A stretch of DNA of 32,383 nucleotides from a virus (IMGVR_UViG_2861069343_000002:1-32383), one strand, 5' to 3'; numbered from the stretch's first letter, positions 1 to 21,574 are shown. Notes: generated by a model from the sequence alone, not told the origin. Made by a program: numbers and translations.

Positions 1-780
1 ATGGAAAACAAAAAAAGTTGCGTTTATTGTAAAAGCACAACAAACTTAACTAAAGAACATATTTTCCCTTCAGCAATAATTAAAAGTTTTAATGTTGAAC
101 TTTTATCGATGACTGATAAGAGTGACTACCATTTTAAAGGCGATCCAGTTATTGGGGATGTATGCGCTGAGTGTAATAATGGAATACTGTCGCAACTAGA
201 TGCTGATTTCGTAACTTGTTTTAAAAATCAGATGCTAACACCTTTAAAACCCGGAAATGAAATAACATTTGAATATGAATATGATTTATTATTACGTGAA
301 CTTCTAAAGATATCATATAATTCAGCGAGGGCATCAAATGGTGGTTATAATGCCAGAGCCATTTTAGAAAAATACATACCATTCATAATCACTGGCAATA
401 AAAACAAAAATGTAGATAGTATAATTCTTTCCCTTCTAATTGTAACTTCTGCAAATATGGTTAATCTGGAAACTGGTAAACATGAAGAGCCTTTAGAACC
501 ATATCTATTAAGAAGCGCATCGATTGATGGTTTAAACCTCAACCCTAACAATTATATTGTTAGGATGGTTGCATTTAATAGCTTTTGGTTTTTTTTGTTA
601 ATTCCAAAGAGGCCAGTTACATCCAAAGTGAAAAAAGAATTTTGGGATGAATTTAAAAGAAAAAATCATCTGCATGGAGTTTTGTTAAAAAGAAACAACA
701 CGTCAATAAAGATCACAAAAGATAAAACGACATATTTGCATCCTGACTTAATAGAAAAGATGTGGCGAAAAATAAAGTAG
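1..780 (+). CDS. HNH (His-Me finger) endonuclease-domain protein, 259 aa, AT-rich cargo gene
   Basis: ORF begins with ATG at window position 1. N-terminal CVYCK...TKEHIFP...CAECNNG spacing is typical of HNH nucleases. Visibly AT-rich compared with phage structural genes (by eye, not computed). C-terminal half has no recognisable motif. Confidence 0.5.
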   Translation: MENKKSCVYCKSTTNLTKEHIFPSAIIKSFNVELLSMTDKSDYHFKGDPVIGDVCAECNNGILSQLDADFVTCFKNQMLTPLKPGNEITFEYEYDLLLRELLKISYNSARASNGGYNARAILEKYIPFIITGNKNKNVDSIILSLLIVTSANMVNLETGKHEEPLEPYLLRSASIDGLNLNPNNYIVRMVAFNSFWFFLLIPKRPVTSKVKKEFWDEFKRKNHLHGVLLKRNNTSIKITKDKTTYLHPDLIEKMWRKIK

Positions 781-1040
781 AACAAATTTTCCAGTTGACA
801 ATACCAAAAATAATTAATGGGGACTAGGTTAAATGACGCAGTGGAACAAACTCACCAGAGAAGAAAATTAATGGTATTAATGTTCAATGTGTTCATTACT
901 GTAACCTAGCCCCTACTAATTTATTCACTATATTGCTGAGTATGTCCGCATCTGGCACATAGCAGCCCTAGAGATAGGAGCACACAGTCATAGATGGTCG
1001 GTGGGAGGTAGTGAAAATCCTCTCATACAATAAATACGTA

Positions 1041-1130
1041 AAATCGATAACGGCAAGAGACCTTTCAATACTCGCACTATCGGAAGTTAACCAACCTGCC
1101 ACAGCACGTTCTCGCATACACGTGTCTGCG
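1041..1130. repeat. Direct repeat copy A (~90 bp), diverged copy of 3298..3388
   Basis: Manual alignment: both copies begin AAATCGATAACGGC and share CGCACTATCG and GCATACA blocks; roughly 75% identity by eye. Confidence 0.6.
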
Positions 1131-1194
1131 CCCCCCCCCCTCCATCAATCATAATCAGATAGAGCCAAAAAACAAAAACAAAAACAAAAAAAAC
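1131..1194. repeat. Homopolymeric C10 tract (1131..1140) followed by a (CAAAA)n-like A-rich microsatellite (1166..1194)
   Basis: Read directly: gcg-cccccccccc-tcc, then caaaaaacaaaaacaaaaacaaaaaaaac. Confidence 0.85.
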
Positions 1195-1391
1195 ATCAAG
1201 TTACAACAATAAAAAAGACGCCAGTCAACCGATGATGAAACAAATGAGGATACGCAAAGGAGCCGCAGCTCCCTAGTAATATGAAAGCCCAGACCATCAA
1301 AGCAGAAGACTGTTAAAATATCAAAAACCCGTTATCCGCTGAAACACAGTACTACTTTGTTTAAGTTAACGATATTGCCTCAAGGGCAGTT

Positions 1392-1925
1392 TTAAAATAC
1401 GGTGAATACATCACACAGGTCCGATAAAACTTCTCGACAAACATGCCTATGATCGCTGAGCACAGAGTTTATATGCTGAAGTGTTATATACTCTTCATAC
1501 CATTCTTGTGTTACAACATTTTTCAAATTATAGAGCCTGTGAAATGACTCTTTTGCCTCCTGCGAATTAACAAATTGTTGATTATGCCCCATTAACCTCA
1601 TTAAAAACCCCTCCAAACAAAATGGTGAGGATTGAATGATTTGTATGTCTCTATTTCTAGCAGCAGATAGAGCATCAGTAGGTATTGCAAGGTCTGAGTC
1701 AATAAAAACAACTCTTTTATCAAAACTACCAGCATGGTTTATAGCAGCCATTATAGCTGATTTCGGTCCTCCACCGCCGGCATCATCTAACCTAACACTA
1801 AACCCTGCAGTCCTAGTTGTTAAGAGTCGTTTTAAACAATCAGCAAATCTTTTATCAGTAATTCCTTCGCACATCAAAAGCTTAGTTCGTTCAACTCCAC
1901 GCTTTACACGTCTGGGCTTCATCAT
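1392..1925 (-). CDS. RloB-like / TOPRIM-like small protein, partner of the upstream AAA ATPase
   Basis: 177 aa. N-terminal basic stretch then LLMCEGITDKRF (CEGxT[ED] motif as in RloB/DUF4276), later VVFIDSDLA acidic motif. ATG overlaps the ATPase stop (ATGATGA junction at 1922..1925), indicating translational coupling. Confidence 0.5.
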   Translation of the reverse strand: MMKPRRVKRGVERTKLLMCEGITDKRFADCLKRLLTTRTAGFSVRLDDAGGGGPKSAIMAAINHAGSFDKRVVFIDSDLAIPTDALSAARNRDIQIIQSSPFCLEGFLMRLMGHNQQFVNSQEAKESFHRLYNLKNVVTQEWYEEYITLQHINSVLSDHRHVCREVLSDLCDVFTVF

Positions 1926-3196
1926 AAGTCTGGTACTCCTCCAAAAGCACCAGCTAAATATTTAGCCGCAATATTATCGTCGACTCGCGCCTCACTGGAT
2001 GGAAAATCATCAAGTCGATAACATTCACTTCTATTGAATTTTTTCTCAGTAATCAACACACGGTACTTACCCAAATAATTTATCAATTCGGGTTTATGAC
2101 AAGTAAAAATTAACTGTGTATGTAACGGGTTTGTTTCTTTACTGATAAACAACTCTAATATAGGTTTAACCATATGTGGGTGCAAATCATCACCAAGTTC
2201 ATCAATAAAGCATGCTGTTCCTTTTTTCAGACATTGCATAATATTATGCAATCTGATAAATGCACTTTGTGTTCCAGCAGATTCGAATGCAAAGGGTAAC
2301 TCAAACTTGGAACCATCTTCTTTTTCATGAATACCATTTATAATATAATAAACATCCTTCTCACCGTTTATATCAACTTTCTCTTCTTTTTCTATAGTTA
2401 TATCATCTAAACCTAAATCCCATTTGCGTAAAATATTTTTTACACTTTTAAAGGCTACTGGATCTTTATATAAATCCTCCGCTGTCGCACCTAAATCTCC
2501 ATAATCATAGCTATACCTTCCCATAGCATTTACATTAGTAGTACTGCTCATTTTTTCGGCTATATCTATAGCCAAAGGAACACCTACACGGCGAGCTGCA
2601 GAAATTATACTTGTATTAGCAGGAGTTCTCTTACCCTCTAAAAGACCTAAAGGAAAAAGTTCTGCTTTTTCAACATAATCATATTTAATTGTTTTTAACA
2701 GTTCTTCAACTTCTTGATGACTAAAATCATCACTACAATTATTTAACTGTTTCTCATAATTTTCTTTATCCAACTTCCTTTTAAAAACATAGATATTTTT
2801 ATTTTTCTCATTTCTTACATACAATTCTTCTTTAATGACAAAATGGTCGCAGGCCGTAACAACATATGTGTATACTTTTCCATCTAAAACAAAACATATT
2901 TTAATCATACCTGGTTTTGTAAAAGGCCGATTAATGTTTAAATACAGATAATCAGTTACTTTTGCTGGTATAGACCAAAAAAACCAACTCAAGAAAGACA
3001 TTGGTTTAAGGAGTGTTGTCTTACCGGAGGCGTTCGCCCCCATGATAGCAGTAATCAGATTGACCTTGTGTCCATCTACATCTACCCACAGTTCTTTTTT
3101 CTTATCTTTAGCTGTAGTAGTTAGGTCTACGAACCCACCTTCATCTTCAAAGCTACCGATATTCTTAATCTCATACCAAAGTATAGCGTTAGCCAT
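1922..3196 (-). CDS. AAA family ATPase (ABC/AAA_21-like), candidate abortive-infection/defense ATPase
   Basis: 424 aa. Walker A GANASGKTT near N-terminus; Walker B plus H-loop ACFIDELGDDLHPH near C-terminus. Strong SD (AAGAGGGG) before ATG at 3196. AT-rich. Confidence 0.7.
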   Translation of the reverse strand: MANAILWYEIKNIGSFEDEGGFVDLTTTAKDKKKELWVDVDGHKVNLITAIMGANASGKTTLLKPMSFLSWFFWSIPAKVTDYLYLNINRPFTKPGMIKICFVLDGKVYTYVVTACDHFVIKEELYVRNEKNKNIYVFKRKLDKENYEKQLNNCSDDFSHQEVEELLKTIKYDYVEKAELFPLGLLEGKRTPANTSIISAARRVGVPLAIDIAEKMSSTTNVNAMGRYSYDYGDLGATAEDLYKDPVAFKSVKNILRKWDLGLDDITIEKEEKVDINGEKDVYYIINGIHEKEDGSKFELPFAFESAGTQSAFIRLHNIMQCLKKGTACFIDELGDDLHPHMVKPILELFISKETNPLHTQLIFTCHKPELINYLGKYRVLITEKKFNRSECYRLDDFPSSEARVDDNIAAKYLAGAFGGVPDL

Positions 3197-3244
3197 AACC
3201 CCTCTTTTTATACAAAAAAATGTTCAAAATCGCCACATGCTGAG

Positions 3245-3274
3245 TTTATAGCAGGAAGCGTATATAGCAAGCAA
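3245..3274 (-). promoter_or_regulatory. Candidate sigma70 promoter for the ATPase/RloB-like operon
   Basis: On minus strand TTGCTT-N18-TATAAA (plus-strand aagcaa at 3269..3274 and tttata at 3245..3250), about 50 nt upstream of the ATPase ATG. Confidence 0.3.
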
Positions 3275-3297
3275 AAAAACATAGACATGATTTAGTT

Positions 3298-3388
3298 AAA
3301 TCGATAACGGCCGGAAATCATTCAATTCCCGCACTATCGAACGTTCACCAGCCAACCGCAAAACGTTATTGCATACAACGTTTCTGCG
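3298..3388. repeat. Direct repeat copy B (~90 bp), diverged copy of 1041..1130
   Basis: See copy A. Lies between the stf stop and the ATPase promoter. Confidence 0.6.
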
Positions 3389-3586
3389 GCATAATCCCAA
3401 TGATTACTCCCTGACAGGATTTGCAGGCCACTCAATATCAGGTGCAGTTGATGTATCAACACGGTTCAGCAACACCCGATACTTTTTCCAGGCTTCCAGC
3501 AACAAGGTTTCTTTCTCCGTTGCGATCTCCAGCTCAACAACAGTCTGAACGTACCGGGAACAGCCTCCTTCAGAGCTTGAAGGATA

Positions 3587-6500
3587 TCAATGTTCGCTTC
3601 CTGTTAACTGCCGGACAAGTGCAACCAGTTCGCTTACCTGATTTTCCAGAGTGCTGATCCGGGTGTCTGCTGTTGCCAGATTTTCACGTAGCGTTGTGTT
3701 TTCCTCTTCCAGCGCGGTAACGCGATCATCTGTTTCACGGGCGACCTGAACAAGTAAACCCGTCACGGCGGCGTAGTCAACATTAAGATAGCGCGTTTCT
3801 TCGCGTAGCTCGTTGCCGTCAACGGTCGGGCCTTGCAACTCTTCACCGTAATGAGTAAACGATCCCACAGCTTCTGGTATCGCCTCCATTACTTCCTGTG
3901 CAATAACGCCAGCATAAGGCATCCCGTTTTCCCTGAGCGTGTAGGTGTATCCGTTCATTTTACGGATTGCTTTCGTCGCGTCGCTGATAACGAGAATATC
4001 GTCTTTAAGGTCGCGGTCTGATGACTGATTCAGCGTTGTGCAATTAATAGCGCCATTTACATCAAACAACTGGCCTGCTGACGTTTTTTGCGCATAAAAC
4101 AGATACGCAGCAGACGTGCCAACCTCAAAAACGTTTTGTCGAGTACTGGAACCCCACACCCTGATACCAACTGGTAGTTCTGAATTACCTGAATTAAGTA
4201 AAGCAAAACGATTGCCAGTCCCTGTTTGTTTTCTAATTACTAAATCGGCAGTTGAGTTAACCTCATCTTTGTTGATGGTTAGCGCCTGTGCTGTAGCACC
4301 GTTGACAGTACCGCTTAGTAGTTGCACCGCGCCATCATCGCCATTTAACAGCACTTGAGCGCTGCTTCTGTGGTTTTTAAGGCACAACATTTTTCCCGTG
4401 TTTTTCGATGTACCTACTGACCACGCCGAATTGGTTCCAGTGCTATCAACACCGCGCACAGCACAATTCATACTACTGTAATCTGACGTACTCCCCAGCA
4501 CATCAACACGCCCGCCGCCTAATTTTGATGGAGTCGTCGAGGTTAACGACCTGACGGTTACATCCTGATTCCATCCTGAAACAACTACCTGACTCCACTC
4601 CGTCCAACTTCCATTGACAACAAAGCGAACGTATATGCGTTTTGTGTCGCTGCCAATCAGCGTTTGCATGATCGCATAATCTGAACCCGTAGTTTTACGA
4701 GTAGATTCTACACGTAGCAAAAAGTTACCGCTTACGCCGTCAGGCTTATTGGTAATATATGCACCACCTGCGACAGTTTTGCATTGATAGTATTTAACAG
4801 ATCCAGCCACTGTATTAGCAATGATCAAGTCGTTTAAATCAATAGTCTTGTTGTCAATGGTTTCCGGCTCGATAGATCCCGCCATACCTGCGTTAAATGT
4901 GGCAAGGTCAGAAAAGGTTGTTTTACCGCCTACCGTCACCCCGCTATCGAGTTTTGCTTGTGTGATTACTTTGCTGTTTTTTGTGTGGTCAGAATAACTA
5001 CCAAAATACAAATCACCGTCACCAGCTATACCCAGGTATTTTTGATCAACATCATCAACCTTAAACCCAATGGACAAGTTTTTAATTGTGTTGTTGCTCG
5101 TTAAAACCAAAGGCGTATGCTGAGATCCTTTGATGCTTACCGTAGTGTTATCGGAACTGGTGCTTGTGTTTGCAAATTCTGCGGTGGCTGCGCTGATTTT
5201 GTAAGTTATTTTTAGATTGCGGGCCTCAACCCTCCCGTCGTGGCGAACAATAAAATCACCACTTGATTCACCTTTTGTGTTTTTCGCCCTGATGTGGATT
5301 TCGCCAAGTGATTCGTTGTTTTCAGGCGACCAAACAACGCCGCGCTCGCTTCCGTCGTTGTTCATGAACCACAGATGAGCGGTTCCTTTTGCTGATTTTA
5401 GCCTGATAGATGGCGTTTCTTTCAATATATCAAGATCACCAGACATAACATCGCCGGATTTTTTCACCTGCGCATCGTTAGTTACGTTGCCAAGTCCAAC
5501 ATCCGATTTCGACGGCTTGTTTGCCGAGCCGTATAGCTCATTGATGCTAAAAGTCCCGTTGTTAAGCCGGGCATCGTTGCCGGCATAGATCTTAATCTTC
5601 GCGGTTGAGTAGTCGATATTGATCGCTGACCACGTATCGCCGCACCGCGAGAATATACCAGAACCGTGGCTATAAATGGTCGCCGTGCTTCCGGTCGGCT
5701 TATCACCGCGCCAGAAATGACCACCTTTGTCACGCAGAGCTTTTAAGATCTCTACATCGCTCATCTTGCCGTTTGTTGATATCCCGCTACCGCCAAGACC
5801 GAAAGCGCCTGTAAGCATAGCATTAGAAAGACCCAAATCTGCTTTAGTCGGCTTGTTTAACTGGTCGTAAATCCTTACAACGGGGCTTTCAACATATCCA
5901 GAAGGCGCGGCGGTTTGCTTAACAAATCCGTCTGGAATGTATAATTCCGTGCGTGCCGTCTGCGCCAGTACCGCAACCTTTGCGCCGTTGATAAATGCAC
6001 GCTGGAAGGCCCAAACCTCAATAAAGCCATCATCTTTAACCAGGCCGTAACGCATTTGCATGCTATTGATTAGCCCGGTTGGCCCTAAACGGCGTATACT
6101 CAGGTAACGAGATACATTATCAGCAGTAAGCGAAGAAGGCAGACCGCGCGCCGAGATCTCGATAAAGTCAATGTTTCCGTAAGGGGAGCCGTAGTCACCG
6201 CCGTTAGTAACCATTAGCGTTACATGGCAATTGTTGCTTCCGGGATCGGAAAGTTTCGCGATCTTTATGTAAAAAGACTCATTACCAGTAACAACGGGCC
6301 AATCGTATTGCGTCATCGGGCTGACGAGTCCCCCGACCTTGTCGAGATATTCTTTCGCCTTGTTCTCTGACGCTTTAGCGTTGGTTTCGCTGACCTTTGC
6401 TGCTGACTCACTATTTTTCGCGTTGGTTTCTGATTTTTTGGCTGCTGTCGCGGAATTTGCCGATGCAGTTTGTGAGTCTGCTGCCGCCTGTGCGCTGTTA

Positions 6501-7345
6501 TCCGCATTCATCTCAGACGTTTTTGCGGCCTTCGCGGAATTTCCTGCCGCCGTTGCCGAGGAAGCTGCACTGCCGGCGCTCGAGGCTGCGCTCGTTTCTG
6601 ATGATTTTGCCGCCACTTTTGAAGCCGACGCATCCCGGGCTGAGGTGGCAGCTTCTGACGCTTTCGTGGTCGCGGTGGATGCAGAAGTGGCCGCAGATTT
6701 TTGTGATGCTGCGGCATTCGTTTCTGACGTTTTCGCTGCACCGGCACTGGTGGCTGCCGCGCTTTTTGAAGACTCTGCAGCGGCAGCACTTTTTGATGCT
6801 TCAGTAGCCTTTGTTGATGCCGTTCCTGCGCTGGAAGACGCTGACTGAGCCGACGACGCGGCCTGTCCGGCTGACGTGCTGGCTGCGCGTGCGGAGTCCG
6901 CAGCATCAGTCGCATGGGTTGCCGCCTCACGGGCTGATGTGCGGGCATCACTGGCTGACTTCTTCGCGGCTGCCGTGTTCTGTGCCACTGCGGACGCGTT
7001 ACGCGCCACCTCTTCCACCATCAGTTCAAAGCGGCGCAGTGCCTCCGGACGGACATCATCCTCCGTCATGGCACCGAGAAAATCATTCAGCGTACCCGGT
7101 TGTGAGTCTTCATACACGGTGATGGTCCCGGCATGCGATGGCGGGAAGCCTTCCACCAACAGAATAACGCTGTACTGACCGTACTCAACGTCCATGCTGT
7201 AACGCCCGGCTTCATCCGGGTTTTCTGAGGCCACTGTGTTCACCACCACCGTGGTGCTGTTACGTTTTGCTTTCAGCTGGATTGTACAGTTCTGTACCGG
7301 TTTACCTGCACCGTCTTTCAGTACACCTGAAATCTTTACTGCCAT
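3587..7345 (-). CDS. stf: Side tail fiber protein (lambda Stf-like N-terminus, A/S/T-rich repeat region, C-terminal peptidase S74 intramolecular chaperone domain)
   Basis: N-terminus MAVKISGVLKDGAGKPVQNCTIQLKA matches lambda Stf N-terminus as recalled. Long Ala/Ser/Thr-rich repetitive segment. C-terminal SDRDLKDDI...NGYTYT...GVIAQEV motif of self-cleaving S74 chaperone. ATG at 7345 preferred over the in-frame GTG at 7351. Confidence 0.85.
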   Translation of the reverse strand: MAVKISGVLKDGAGKPVQNCTIQLKAKRNSTTVVVNTVASENPDEAGRYSMDVEYGQYSVILLVEGFPPSHAGTITVYEDSQPGTLNDFLGAMTEDDVRPEALRRFELMVEEVARNASAVAQNTAAAKKSASDARTSAREAATHATDAADSARAASTSAGQAASSAQSASSSAGTASTKATEASKSAAAAESSKSAAATSAGAAKTSETNAAASQKSAATSASTATTKASEAATSARDASASKVAAKSSETSAASSAGSAASSATAAGNSAKAAKTSEMNADNSAQAAADSQTASANSATAAKKSETNAKNSESAAKVSETNAKASENKAKEYLDKVGGLVSPMTQYDWPVVTGNESFYIKIAKLSDPGSNNCHVTLMVTNGGDYGSPYGNIDFIEISARGLPSSLTADNVSRYLSIRRLGPTGLINSMQMRYGLVKDDGFIEVWAFQRAFINGAKVAVLAQTARTELYIPDGFVKQTAAPSGYVESPVVRIYDQLNKPTKADLGLSNAMLTGAFGLGGSGISTNGKMSDVEILKALRDKGGHFWRGDKPTGSTATIYSHGSGIFSRCGDTWSAINIDYSTAKIKIYAGNDARLNNGTFSINELYGSANKPSKSDVGLGNVTNDAQVKKSGDVMSGDLDILKETPSIRLKSAKGTAHLWFMNNDGSERGVVWSPENNESLGEIHIRAKNTKGESSGDFIVRHDGRVEARNLKITYKISAATAEFANTSTSSDNTTVSIKGSQHTPLVLTSNNTIKNLSIGFKVDDVDQKYLGIAGDGDLYFGSYSDHTKNSKVITQAKLDSGVTVGGKTTFSDLATFNAGMAGSIEPETIDNKTIDLNDLIIANTVAGSVKYYQCKTVAGGAYITNKPDGVSGNFLLRVESTRKTTGSDYAIMQTLIGSDTKRIYVRFVVNGSWTEWSQVVVSGWNQDVTVRSLTSTTPSKLGGGRVDVLGSTSDYSSMNCAVRGVDSTGTNSAWSVGTSKNTGKMLCLKNHRSSAQVLLNGDDGAVQLLSGTVNGATAQALTINKDEVNSTADLVIRKQTGTGNRFALLNSGNSELPVGIRVWGSSTRQNVFEVGTSAAYLFYAQKTSAGQLFDVNGAINCTTLNQSSDRDLKDDILVISDATKAIRKMNGYTYTLRENGMPYAGVIAQEVMEAIPEAVGSFTHYGEELQGPTVDGNELREETRYLNVDYAAVTGLLVQVARETDDRVTALEEENTTLRENLATADTRISTLENQVSELVALVRQLTGSEH

Positions 7346-7354
7346 ATTCACCCC

Positions 7355-17067: not shown

Positions 17068-18120
17068 TTATTTCCCCACCAGCTCGTTTATCTCTTTCAC
17101 TGTCTGGTTAAACCGCTCTGACTCAAGCTCAACACCTAAGGCCCGACGCCCCAGCGCCATTGCTGCTTTTATTGTGGAACCGGATCCCATAAAAAAATCA
17201 GCAACCAGATCACCTGGTCGACTACTGGCATTGATTATTTGCCTGAGCATATCCGCCGGTTTCTCACACGGATGTTTCCCCGGGTAGAACTGAACGGGTT
17301 TATGCATCCAGACATCGGTATAAGGCACGGAGACTGATACGGAGAAATAGCGCCGGAGAGATTTAAACTCATCCAGCAATTCAGAATATTTGCGATTCAG
17401 TGAATCATAAGATGCCACCAGCTGGTGGTGTGGTTGTTCCAGTTGTTGTTCCTGAAACTTCTCTGCCGCTATACGGGAAAACAGTGCCTGTAACTTCCGA
17501 TAGTCAGCCTCATTCGGCAACTGCCACTGACTGGCACCAAACCAGTGGGAAACCATATTTTTCTTACCTGTGGCTTCGGCAATTTGTTTTGCCGTTACAC
17601 CCAGTTCGGCACGAGCATCCCTGAAATACGATATCAGCGGTGCCATTATGTGCTGTTTGAGTTCCCTTTCTTTTGCCGCATAGCCGTCACTTTTGCCGCG
17701 ATATGGTCCCTGGTAATGTTCAGCAAACAGAACGCGCTCTGTGGCAGGAAAATATGCGCGCAGACTTTCTTTATTACACCCATTCCAACGTCCGGACGGC
17801 TTCGCCCAGATGATATGGTTAAGCACGTTGAAACGTTCACGCATCATGATCTCAATATCAGATGCCAGGCGATGCCCACAGAACAGGTAAAGGCTTCCGG
17901 CAGGTTTCAACACCCGCCAGAACTGGGCCAGACAGTGGTCCAGCCACTTAAGGTAATCTTCGTCCCCTTTCCACTGATTGTCCCAACCGTTGGGTTTCAC
18001 CTTGAAGTAAGGCGGATCGGTAACAATCAGGTCAATGGAATCATCAGGCAGGGACTGAATAAAATGCAGGCAATCAGCGTTGATTAAATCAACACTGTTT
18101 ATTTTTACAGTATTTTTCAT
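17068..18120 (-). CDS. DNA N6-adenine (or N4-cytosine) methyltransferase, beta-class, orphan phage MTase
   Basis: Motif IV DPPY near N-terminus (LIVTDPPYF) and AdoMet motif I FMGSGST near C-terminus; 350 aa. Confidence 0.8.
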
Positions 18121-18712: not shown

Positions 18713-19873
18713 ATGACTACACTCAAAGAACTCAAAGAAGAGCTTGCTCAGATACAAGATGAACACGCTAAGAACAGAAAAAAGGCTGAAATTGCAGCTT
18801 TAACCGCTTCCGCTGACAATGAAATCAGACTCGCTCAGAGAAACATTGGATACAATGTACGTGAGTGGACCGTTGAAGTCATTATTCAAAAGTATGGTGA
18901 TAATATTGAAAATGACAAAAACGAGCTTTTTATTCCAGATTATCAACGTGATTACAAGTGGGATACAAAAACAGCCTCTCGCTTTATAGAAAGTATTCTA
19001 TTAGACTTTCCAATACCTTACCTTTACATTGCTGATGTATTTAATGAAGACCCTGAATTAGATGGTAGGGTAGAAATCATTGATGGTTCACAACGGATAC
19101 GCTCTATTTATTATTTTTGGAACGATCAATTTGAGTTAAAGGATTTGAAAGAGCTTAAAAGTTTAGAAGGTTTCAAATTTTCAGATCTTTTAGCTAGCCG
19201 CCAAAGAAGATTTTTAAGAGCTTCACTAAGATTTATTGAGTTGAAAGGTGATGTTGAGGAACAACATAGAAGAGATTTATTTGAAAGGATCAACTCAGGT
19301 GTTAAAAGATTAGAAGCGATGGAAGTGAGGCATGGCTCAGATGCTGCTACCTCAATGTTCTATAAAGATGTTGTGACCCCATGCTCAACAAACTCACTTT
19401 TTTCCCAACTAGCTCCATTATCAGACCGGAAACGGTCGAATGGCGATCATCGTGAGTTAGTTTTGAGATTTTTTGCATATTTAAATGATTTAGAAAACTA
19501 TAAGGGATTTGTCCGTCCCTTTATTGATAATTATTTAAATGAACAAGCAGCAGCTGTGACTACTCAACAAGATGTTGATAATTTTAAACATGATTTTGAA
19601 ATGATGCTTGCTTTTGTTGCTACCCATTTCCCTATTGGCTTTAAAAAGACCGCAACAAGTAAAACCACCCCACGAGCCAGATACGAAGCCATTGCCGTGG
19701 GAACTGCACTTGCATTAAAAACTAACCCACAACTCCAGAGTCCAGCCGTACCTGTAGGTGAATGGCTATTTGAAGAGGAATTTGAAACACTTGTTACTGC
19801 TGATAGTGCAAACAATACCAGCCAGCTAAAAAACAGAATCTTTTACGTTAAAAATAAGTTGTTAGGGATTTAA
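18713..19873 (+). CDS. DUF262 (ParB/Srx-like, GmrS-type N-terminal domain) protein
   Basis: 386 aa; hallmark motifs FIPDYQRDYKW and IIDGSQRIRSI (DGQQR variant); no DUF1524/HNH C-terminal domain evident; AT-rich. Confidence 0.75.
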   Translation: MTTLKELKEELAQIQDEHAKNRKKAEIAALTASADNEIRLAQRNIGYNVREWTVEVIIQKYGDNIENDKNELFIPDYQRDYKWDTKTASRFIESILLDFPIPYLYIADVFNEDPELDGRVEIIDGSQRIRSIYYFWNDQFELKDLKELKSLEGFKFSDLLASRQRRFLRASLRFIELKGDVEEQHRRDLFERINSGVKRLEAMEVRHGSDAATSMFYKDVVTPCSTNSLFSQLAPLSDRKRSNGDHRELVLRFFAYLNDLENYKGFVRPFIDNYLNEQAAAVTTQQDVDNFKHDFEMMLAFVATHFPIGFKKTATSKTTPRARYEAIAVGTALALKTNPQLQSPAVPVGEWLFEEEFETLVTADSANNTSQLKNRIFYVKNKLLGI

Positions 19874-19875
19874 AA

Positions 19876-20565
19876 ATGAGTCTAATTGATTTACGAGATG
19901 AATATGAAGAAAGAGCAAGAGACATTATGGAACTGCTTTCTCTTGCATCATCTATAGAGATTCATACTCAGCAGTTAGATCCGCAAGCGCATCAAGATGA
20001 AATAGAATCTAATATCCTAAGGGTAAATATTTTAAAATCATCCGTTCATATGATGCTATATAATCAAGTTGAAAATACTGCCAGAGGTTGCATCGAGTCA
20101 ATTTATGATCATTTACAAGATAATGAGGTGAATTACGCATCACTCAGGGAGAAGCTTCAAGTAAATATATTACATAGAATTGTTTCAGATAATGAAACAG
20201 GGCAATCCCTTTATAAAAAGATAGGCACTGACATTTCCAAAAGAATAATTTCAGCCTCATTGAATATTCGTAAAGAATTCAATGGTAATGTTTGCAAGCC
20301 TGTATTACACAAAATAACGCAGGCTTACGGAATAACTATCGCAAACTCACCTGAATGTAGAAATGGTATTGACTTAGACTTGCTTAAGGATATCAGAAAC
20401 GAACTCGCGCATGGAAGTACTAGCTTCTCTAAAAAGGGGCAAATTGACCCCTTAGAAGAAGTTAAGTCTAGAGCAGAGAGAGTTGATCTATATCTTCGTT
20501 TATTAATAAACTCAACTGAAGATTATATTATCTCTAACGGATATTTATCCCCTCAACATGCCTAA
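19876..20565 (+). CDS. HEPN-domain protein (Rx4H motif), putative RNase effector coupled to the DUF262 gene
   Basis: 229 aa; RNELAH matches HEPN R-x4-6-H; starts 2 nt after the DUF262 stop with SD AGGGA; 3' end overlaps convergent MTase gene by 32 nt. Confidence 0.65.
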   Translation: MSLIDLRDEYEERARDIMELLSLASSIEIHTQQLDPQAHQDEIESNILRVNILKSSVHMMLYNQVENTARGCIESIYDHLQDNEVNYASLREKLQVNILHRIVSDNETGQSLYKKIGTDISKRIISASLNIRKEFNGNVCKPVLHKITQAYGITIANSPECRNGIDLDLLKDIRNELAHGSTSFSKKGQIDPLEEVKSRAERVDLYLRLLINSTEDYIISNGYLSPQHA

Positions 20566-21574
20566 CAAACGTTCTCCCTATTACTTGGCCAATTATAGGG
20601 GGAACAGCATTACCAATCATCGTTCCTAACTTTTGGAATGAAAAAGGCGTATTTTTTCCAATAAATTTATAATCCATAGGAAAAGATTGTAAAATAGCAG
20701 CTTCACGCAAAGTTATTGCTCTATTTTGCTCAGGATGTCCGAATCGCCCATTACCATATCCATAACATTGGGTAGTTATTGTAGGACTAGTATCGTCCCA
20801 AACCATCCGTCCATAAACACTTTTATAGGTAGCACCTGAATGCTTTTTATGGCAATCCGCTCTAATTTCTTCAGGCCAATCATCCCACGTACCACCTGGT
20901 AAAGAGTGCAAGATTCGTTTAAGGTTAATATCCCTTAATTTAGGCGAACGATGCAATGGATCACTTTCGAGTTTCTCCCCTGCACCTATTTTTGGCAACT
21001 GACCAATAGCATCCTTTACTGTAACTTTACGGCTTACTTTTTTTTGATCAAGGCTGATTGGCCCCAATATGGACCCAATTAGAATTAATCTACGTCTATT
21101 TTGAGGCAAGCCATACTCGGAACATTTTACAACGTCGTACCACAGATGATACCCAAGAGTCTTTAATACACTAACAAACTCTTCAAAAACCTTATGATTT
21201 CTAAGTTGAGGAACATTTTCCATAGTCACAAGCTCTGGCATGACATCACTTACAATCCTCTGAAACTCAGATAAAAGACGCCACTTTGTATCATCTTTTC
21301 TGCTATTTGGATTACGATACTTGGAAAACGGTTGGCAAGGGGCACAGCCTGCAAGTAATCTAATATTTCCTTCCTTGAACATAGCAGACACATCGCTGGA
21401 TTGCAGTTCAGTAACTGACTGGTTAATGAACTTCGTTAAGGGATTATTGCTCTCAATAGCGAAACGGCAGGACTCATCAATATCAATGCCATGAGAAACT
21501 TCAATCCCGGCTTTTTTTAGCCCAAAAGTTAAGCCCCCTGCGCCACAAAAAATGTCTACTGCTTGAATGTTCAC
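20534..21574 (-). CDS. DNA cytosine-5 methyltransferase (Dcm-like), first gene of the late operon
   Basis: Motif I DIFCGAGG, motif IV GCAPCQPFS (catalytic PC), motif VI ENV, motif VIII QNRRR, motif X GNAV; GTG start at 21574 with SD GGAGAA. Confidence 0.85.
   Translation of the reverse strand: MNIQAVDIFCGAGGLTFGLKKAGIEVSHGIDIDESCRFAIESNNPLTKFINQSVTELQSSDVSAMFKEGNIRLLAGCAPCQPFSKYRNPNSRKDDTKWRLLSEFQRIVSDVMPELVTMENVPQLRNHKVFEEFVSVLKTLGYHLWYDVVKCSEYGLPQNRRRLILIGSILGPISLDQKKVSRKVTVKDAIGQLPKIGAGEKLESDPLHRSPKLRDINLKRILHSLPGGTWDDWPEEIRADCHKKHSGATYKSVYGRMVWDDTSPTITTQCYGYGNGRFGHPEQNRAITLREAAILQSFPMDYKFIGKNTPFSFQKLGTMIGNAVPPIIGQVIGRTFVRHVEGINIR

Follow-up and report, generated by a model that had tools for sequence, protein, structure and literature searches.

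An AbiL-type ATPase and Toprim-like gene pair carried by a lambdoid prophage of Escherichia coli

The abortive infection (Abi) system AbiL was described in 1999. In Lactococcus lactis it consists of AbiLi and AbiLii, an ABC ATPase encoded first and a RloB/Toprim-type partner encoded second, both on a mobile element, and it acts after phage transcription. The literature groups it with the defence systems that combine an ABC ATPase with a TOPRIM protein. A gene pair of the same arrangement lies on the minus strand of the viral sequence IMGVR_UViG_2861069343_000002:1-32383. This stretch of 32,383 nucleotides (nt), referred to here as the window, was analysed as a whole and matches E. coli FDAARGOS_433 exactly. 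As PADLOC defines AbiL, the pair is an AbiL system, since it comprises an AbiLi ATPase and an AbiLii partner that are adjacent on the same strand with the ATPase first, and its assignment to the AbiL family is very probably correct. It differs from lactococcal AbiL in being carried by an enterobacterial prophage where the latter is carried by a plasmid. Its partner also belongs to a short subfamily of 160-180 amino acids (aa), of which the Enterobacterales clade falls below Pfam RloB detection.

Other described systems show both similarities to this locus and differences from it. A locus called 'abiLI' on the small enterobacterial plasmid pSTW0522-44-9 of Klebsiella (451 + 206 aa) has the same overlapping-gene layout, an AAA_21 ATPase and a C-x-E motif in the partner. 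However, its partner is a full-length RloB protein (119 bits), unlike the 177-aa protein of the window, and no significant BLAST similarity was found between the two. The similarity of the ATPases is confined to the C-terminal 42%, at 29% identity. PARIS is comparable in splitting an ABC ATPase sensor from a Toprim effector, in being borne by phages and satellites, and in its abortive, toxin-antitoxin-like logic. It differs in that AriB is a 35-kDa DUF4435 (PF14491) protein with a dimerisation region, whereas the partner here is of 20 kDa and has no DUF4435 match. In P2 Old, Ts OLD, Bp OLD and GajA of Gabija the ATPase and Toprim parts are fused, whereas here they are separate proteins. Gabija also needs the helicase GajB, which is not present here, and on both counts it was rejected as an identification. 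No UvrD-type helicase or reverse transcriptase, as found with OLD classes 1-3, occurs among the genes neighbouring the pair, either in the window or at related loci. Septu has an HNH partner, PtuB, in the ATPase operon while the partner here is Toprim-like, and the RloAB of type I restriction-modification (R-M) loci is embedded between hsd genes, none of which lie beside the pair here or at related loci.

The features of the pair are as follows.

1922..3196 (start 3196, stop 1922), minus strand: ATPase gene, ATG start, 424 aa
1392..1925 (start 1925, stop 1392), minus strand: small-protein gene, ATG start, 177 aa, 20 kDa
1922..1925, minus strand: ATGA stop/start overlap of 4 nt, a translational coupling signal, with GGAGGA about 11 nt upstream of the second start
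3197..3300, minus strand: upstream region travelling with the cassette, with the Shine-Dalgarno sequence GAGGGG at 3204-3199
3274-3245, minus strand: candidate promoter picked out by eye, TTGCTT (3274-3269) and TATAAA (3250-3245) separated by 18 nt

The initial annotation of this DNA, made from the sequence alone, had proposed two open reading frames (ORFs) of 424 and 177 aa overlapping by 4 nt, AT-rich and situated downstream of a tail-fibre gene. Each of these points was borne out. The strand is minus, GC content is 0.28-0.41 over the pair compared with 0.43-0.61 in the neighbouring tail-fibre gene, and a truncated tail-fibre-assembly (tfa) gene lies between the pair and the tail-fibre ORF of 1254 aa. 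The candidate promoter was not among the output of a consensus promoter scan, a terminator scan found none 3' of the small gene, and Rfam found no RNA element within or beside the cassette. With the pair as query, NCBIfam gave P-loop noise only and PHROGs a single unannotated family.

The two proteins

The ATPase matches Pfam AAA_21 at 69.9 bits (5e-19; cut-off 27) and AAA_15 at 32.4 bits (cut-off 32.1). Its match to the PADLOC AbiLi model PDLC02335 is much more extensive, covering residues 3-424 at 1.1e-65 (219.9 bits). The next-best PADLOC defence ATPase model, AriA, follows far behind at 5.7e-22, over the same residues 48-373 and the same model positions (1-304 of 304) as the generic AAA_21 match, and the PtuA models reach only about 1e-5. 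A search of PDB sequences with the ATPase gave no match at E<=0.01. Pfam gives AAA_21 the label 'AbiEii toxin', which was set aside as a naming artefact; AbiEii is a nucleotidyltransferase. The motifs of the ATPase are as follows (protein residues).

G53-T61: Walker A, with K59
E305-S306-x-G308: signature
D332-E333: Walker B
H367: H-loop

Among 48 homologues with identities down to 30%, the invariant residues are G53, N55, S57, G58, K59 and T60 of Walker A, E305, S306 and G308 of the signature, D332 of Walker B and H367 of the H-loop. The Walker B glutamate E333 is nearly invariant. All of the nucleotide-binding motifs are therefore intact. The sequences that the initial annotation had singled out were found at residues 53-61 of the ATPase (GANASGKTT), around D332/E333 (FIDELGDDLHPH) and, in the small protein, at residues 19-24 (CEGITD) and 74-78 (FIDSD). 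Its joint label of Walker B/H-loop for the second of these needs correction in part. FIDE is indeed Walker B, but LGDDL is the D-loop, and the H-loop is the invariant H367 in 'FTCH' and not the histidines of 'DLHPH'. When the AlphaFold (AF2) model of the ATPase (pLDDT 90, pTM 0.89) was compared with the PDB using Foldseek, the best matches were Rad50 heads, JetC, Septu PtuA and retron PtuA. These matches, together with the conserved motifs, place the modelled protein among the Rad50/SMC-type ABC ATPases, with a short helical insertion and without a long coiled coil.

The small protein is recognised by two PADLOC AbiLii models, PDLC02338 (1.5e-9, residues 58-146) and PDLC02337 (1.8e-4), and has a weak match to the Toprim part of GajA. 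The likeness to AbiL put forward in the initial annotation is thus upheld by profiles for both proteins, AbiLi and AbiLii in PADLOC and, for the ATPase, AAA_21 and AAA_15 above their cut-offs. Other searches with the small protein gave little. There was no Pfam match at E<=1, RloB and DUF4435 included, no NCBIfam match, and only chance-level matches to PDB sequences (E>=0.24). A profile of 65 family members likewise matched no PDB sequence, and Foldseek found nothing significant in the PDB for the structural model. The word-indexed homologues form 21 clusters, none with a Pfam domain, and the named ones are all from Enterobacterales. Several homologues (P0005, P0007, P0008 and P0011) carry the name 'glycosyltransferase family 2 protein' at NCBI, which looks like a propagated annotation error.

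The connection with RloB becomes apparent through more distant relatives. The small protein shares 33% identity (E 3e-13) with a 116-aa protein, the partner of an ATPase that is itself 37% identical to the one described here, and this partner scores 29.9 bits against Pfam RloB (PF13707), under the 31.5-bit cut-off. Three close homologues have no Pfam RloB match at E<=5. An exhaustive profile search with a 16-sequence family alignment returned 607 cluster representatives at E<=1e-3; among the 150 listed, almost every one was 160-180 aa long. In the sample of 65 relatives, 51 match Pfam RloB (E<=0.01; best 5e-15), 64 match PADLOC AbiLii (best 4e-22) and 36 match GajA. Taken with the PADLOC match of the small protein itself and the near-RloB score of its relative, these family-wide matches support its placement as a short-form Toprim protein of the RloB/AbiLii lineage, with a homology to RloB that is supported transitively, as its own score lies below the Pfam threshold. 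The Enterobacterales clade would then be one Pfam-invisible branch of the short-form RloB proteins. The RloB affinity suggested in the initial annotation accordingly holds for the family and not for direct Pfam matching of the protein. Its concern that the protein is shorter than a typical RloB falls away, the family as a whole being of this length.

Comparison with the structurally described OLD nuclease of Burkholderia (Bp OLD) allows a catalytic site to be proposed. The site reported by Schiltz et al. comprises the Toprim glutamate E400, E404 four residues on, a glycine after beta-2, D455-x-D457, T506-x-E508 where the helical domain begins and K562 contributed by a later helix, a set that binds two Mg2+ ions (PMC6755086). 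The corresponding feature is given here in residues of the small protein.

E20, D24, G51, D76, D78, C103, E105, K125: proposed catalytic residues, predicted

E20 and D24 have a spacing equal to that of E400 and E404, G51 comes after beta-2 and D76-S-D78 after beta-3. C103-L-E105, spaced as T506-x-E508, stands at the start of the helix after beta-4, with K125 in the next helix. In the 65 diverse relatives E20, G21, G51 and D76 are invariant, and D78, P101, C103, E105 and K125 are conserved in at least 90%; position 24 is an invariant Asp in the Enterobacterales clade and a Glu in the wider-family consensus. CEGxTD and FIDSD, which had initially been read as TOPRIM-like, thus correspond to the Toprim glutamate and the DxD, and the other OLD active-site positions have their counterparts as well. 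A Toprim core followed by a helical domain was found in the small protein, and the agreement with Bp OLD in residue order, spacing and predicted secondary structure suggests that it is a working two-metal nuclease.

The cassette and the prophage that carries it

Orthologues of the pair in Salmonella, Citrobacter and Klebsiella retain both frames at full length (423/424 and 177 aa) as well as the ATGA overlap. Comparison of the window with Salmonella gave proportions of synonymous differences (pS) of 0.69-0.73, which is nearly saturated, and of nonsynonymous differences (pN) of 0.07-0.11, with dN/dS ratios of 0.038 (ATPase gene) and 0.042 (small gene). Purifying selection on the two genes is strong. 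On the opposite strand, an ORF of 109 aa at 1636..1965 is shorter at the three orthologous loci, whose longest open run antisense to the pair is 86-97 aa.

The two genes also stay together. In viral contigs, which were scanned with a closer alignment since the 65-sequence alignment was too diverse, each of the eight loci encoding a relative of the small protein has, directly upstream, a gene for an ATPase homologue (32-87% identity, 398-428 aa), and the 4-nt overlap is present in six. The same order was seen in all nine Enterobacterales loci returned. On a Photobacterium plasmid, the gene for a 417-aa ATPase precedes that for a 170-aa 'RloB domain' protein, and most distant environmental relatives of the ATPase have a small downstream partner. 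At two loci with ATPases of about 33-35% identity (L004 5062-5431 and L005 1519-1644) all that is left of the decayed partner is a 41-aa remnant ORF. At another (L006 6222-6743), the 173-aa gene that follows a distant ATPase relative was considered as a partner and rejected, being unrelated to the small protein by hhalign. The pairing is therefore consistent among close relatives and not universal at about 33-35% ATPase identity.

The DNA that is shared between loci defines a further feature.

1383..3300, minus strand: mobile unit, the sole DNA common to the window and the Salmonella loci, 80% identity

This unit reaches from 104 bp 5' of the first start codon to 9 bp beyond the second stop. 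The DNA matches in Citrobacter (73%) and Klebsiella (65%) occupy shorter spans inside 1383-3300, and upstream of the genes homology extends to 3300 in Salmonella and 3285 in Citrobacter. Since similarity is confined to 1383-3300, what moves is a 1.9-kb cassette of two genes with their own upstream region. At the Salmonella, Klebsiella and Citrobacter loci, 6-20 bp separate the end of the cassette from the 3' end of a lambdoid/Rac-type integrase gene, with mtfA usually alongside, and one of the Salmonella copies is, in addition, downstream of tail-fibre genes. The comparison shows that the cassette moves between the att-proximal ends of temperate phages. Its neighbours include TIR-domain genes in Salmonella copies and an Abi_alpha gene in Citrobacter copies. 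In two of the Salmonella loci (L007 and L009, 1-4208) it has mtfA beside it and, at a distance of a few kb, two TIR-domain genes and a P4-type integrase, a setting suggestive of a small defence island where a prophage joins the chromosome.

In the window the setting of the cassette is marked by two sets of repeats.

30922-30985, and 511-574 bp before window position 1 (L001 11427-11490): 64-bp exact att repeat, 3' part of tRNA-Thr(CGU) (thrW)
3295..3377, no strand: 83-bp direct repeat, copy 1, right after the tfa remnant, a sequence conserved in thousands of E. coli genomes
1038..1120, no strand: 83-bp direct repeat, copy 2, 77% identical, about 262 bp beyond the cassette

The prophage is lambdoid, about 31.4 kb long and integrated in thrW, with its integrase at 29.8-30.9 kb. 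Because the att repeats enclose it, the cassette belongs to the prophage, where it occupies the end away from int, a position corresponding to the lambda 'b region'. The prophage itself looks defective, because the portal and lysis genes adjoin one another, the annotation has no terminase, tail genes are few and the gene for the tail tip is truncated. At 3295, immediately past the tfa remnant, the similarity to 4660 other E. coli genomes breaks off, and among 5426 complete E. coli genomes just 14 carry this cargo. In three other E. coli genomes sampled (loci L027, L028 and L029, about 950-4400) the sitABCD iron/manganese transporter follows the same truncated tfa, and the slot is therefore variable. 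To this extent the counts lend partial support to the claim of the initial annotation that the position downstream of the tail fibre is a cargo hotspot. The two copies of the 83-bp repeat bracket the cassette together with about 262 bp of low-complexity DNA, and the repeat may be a recombination scar from the acquisition of this block. Between the cassette and copy 2, at about 1130-1220, there are T-rich, (TTTTG)n-like runs and then about 11 G (minus strand), which occur only in the 14-genome lineage.

Several other genes of the prophage were noted. An AT-rich ORF at 1..780 (plus strand, 259 aa) is convergent with the pair and 612 bp away from it. Its N-terminus is HNH_5-like, with Cys and His residues (Pfam 23.8 bits, below the 27.5 cut-off), and it had no PADLOC match and no tblastn match in the phage collection. 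Its DNA lies within the prophage, and only the 14-genome lineage was found to have it at near-full length. As it is absent from orthologous AbiL loci, this ORF stands outside the AbiL system and could be a separate single-gene cargo. A second defence-type cargo is represented by a DUF262 protein at 18713-19873 (plus strand; PADLOC NsnA 6e-45, PD-T4-2_A 5e-27), after which comes a HEPN-like nuclease at 19876-20565 (plus strand; RefSeq MAE_28990/MAE_18760 family) with no PADLOC match. These two genes lie between two DNA methyltransferases at 17068-18120 and 20534-21574 (both minus strand), one of which is DrmMII/DruM-like. The tail-fibre frame at 3587-7351 (minus strand) is open for 1254 aa, whereas RefSeq has a 974-aa coding sequence and a separate N-terminal pseudogene, with an Ala/Ser-rich repeat between them. 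A full-length Rfam match to IS009 at 3447-3647 (minus strand; 92.5 bits, below the gathering score of 117) overlaps the end of the tail-fibre gene and the tfa remnant.

Proposed function and alternatives

It is probable that the pair is a prophage-carried, two-gene anti-phage module of the AbiL type, a split relative of the OLD nuclease family, which works roughly as outlined here. In the uninfected cell an oligomer of the ATPase would hold the 20-kDa nuclease inactive, as suggested by analogy with PARIS, P2 OLD and the NetFlax pairs. With the ATPase encoded first and translation coupled, the nuclease would never be made without its keeper. The ATPase would act as the infection sensor, its state being shifted by a phage-derived cue, and the nuclease thus freed or activated would cut host nucleic acid and arrest growth before phage release, resulting in abortive infection. 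In PARIS, AriB is sequestered by a hexamer of AriA and is released or activated when that hexamer senses a phage protein, whereupon it cleaves tRNA; P2 OLD has been reported as an abortive tRNase that is unlocked when its oligomer is destabilised; and in the NetFlax work AAA ATPases were experimentally shown to neutralise TOPRIM_OLD toxins (PMC11464382, PMC10802264, PMC12409363, 10.64898/2026.07.10.737580, PMC10440598).

Because AriB and P2 OLD are both reported as tRNases, tRNA anticodon loops are our leading guess for the target of the nuclease, one to which we give slightly better than even chances. GajA cuts DNA, and DNA nicking or cleavage of that kind would be a somewhat less probable activity. 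It could also be imagined that short-form RloB proteins of about 170 aa are minimal free-standing OLD-type nucleases that constitute a further split OLD-like class, perhaps with a novel trigger or target. Their control by the ATPase would be unlike that in PARIS because they lack the DUF4435 dimerisation region. We regard this extension of the proposal as unlikely.

A number of points weigh against the function proposed. The likeness to AbiL was established with PADLOC models (AbiLi 1e-65, AbiLii 1.5e-9) and not with the founding lactococcal sequences, and the authors of PARIS state that AbiL-type systems are structurally distinct. In tblastn searches of a plasmid collection, no Lactococcus record stood among the organisms or rows listed. 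The mapping onto Bp OLD is one of residue order, spacing and predicted secondary structure and not a coordinate superposition, and C103 stands where Bp OLD has Thr. The sensor and effector roles, the sequestration, the trigger and the target are all taken from other systems, and no published test of an enterobacterial AbiL was found in the literature.

The pair might alternatively be a toxin-antitoxin addiction module, in which the nuclease is the toxin and the ATPase the antitoxin, and which stabilises the prophage or the cassette and has no anti-phage role. The NetFlax-validated neutralisation is what such a module would predict. The cassette also persists in a defective-looking prophage and, in Salmonella (L010), without an adjacent integrase. 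However, the NetFlax paper itself regards such pairs as probable Abi defence systems, and toxin-antitoxin behaviour is compatible with defence, as PARIS shows. When it is considered that the cassette occupies phage cargo slots beside other defence genes, addiction without defence appears improbable.

Still less can be said for an RloA/RloB-type accessory of R-M that acts with the prophage methyltransferases. The name RloB comes from Campylobacter type I R-M loci and the prophage does carry two DNA methyltransferases, but these are about 14-18 kb away, outside the 1.9-kb mobile unit. Given also that no hsd genes flank the pair and that orthologous loci have no R-M neighbours, a role of this kind is very improbable.

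The pair was also compared with PARIS proper (AriA/AriB, class 4 OLD), which senses anti-restriction proteins such as Ocr and cleaves tRNA-Lys. The phage-borne layout of ABC ATPase plus Toprim gene is the same, and to this architecture the term 'PARIS-like' of the initial annotation can be applied; the PADLOC AriA match points in the same direction. However, detection of PARIS needs a DUF4435 AriB (PMC9122126), and the small protein matches no DUF4435 model at E<=1. At 177 aa and about 20 kDa it is also much smaller than the 35-kDa AriB, while the AriA match coincides with the generic AAA_21 span and is far weaker than that to AbiLi. With the structural distinction drawn by the PARIS authors themselves, it is hardly credible that the pair is a PARIS system.

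A phage recombination or repair pair like RecF (ABC ATPase) and RecR (Toprim), or a Septu-like pair using the nearby HNH-like ORF, can be dismissed as extremely unlikely in spite of the RecF/RecR-like domain combination, the Foldseek proximity of the ATPase to Rad50 and PtuA and the HNH_5-like N-terminus of ORF 1..780, since the NCBIfam recF match of the ATPase is restricted to the P-loop (E 0.019; cut-off 172 bits), the small protein retains counterparts of a full two-metal set of the nuclease type, the pair is cargo rich in AT and lies outside the phage recombination region, and ORF 1..780, convergent and distant as described, has no PADLOC PtuB match and is absent from orthologous loci.

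The AbiL-type module favoured here belongs to a family that is already catalogued, as existing defence-finder models recognise both of its proteins. Surveys based on Pfam will nevertheless undercount this clade, because the small protein is missed by Pfam and is annotated as 'hypothetical' or as 'glycosyltransferase family 2'. AbiL is now grouped with PARIS, OLD and Gabija. A compact cassette of 424 + 177 aa and 1.9 kb that is at home in E. coli and Salmonella would lend itself to studying the trigger, target and assembly of AbiL in the host in which PARIS and P2 OLD were solved. It would also permit a test of how general tRNA cleavage is across the split ABC/Toprim systems.

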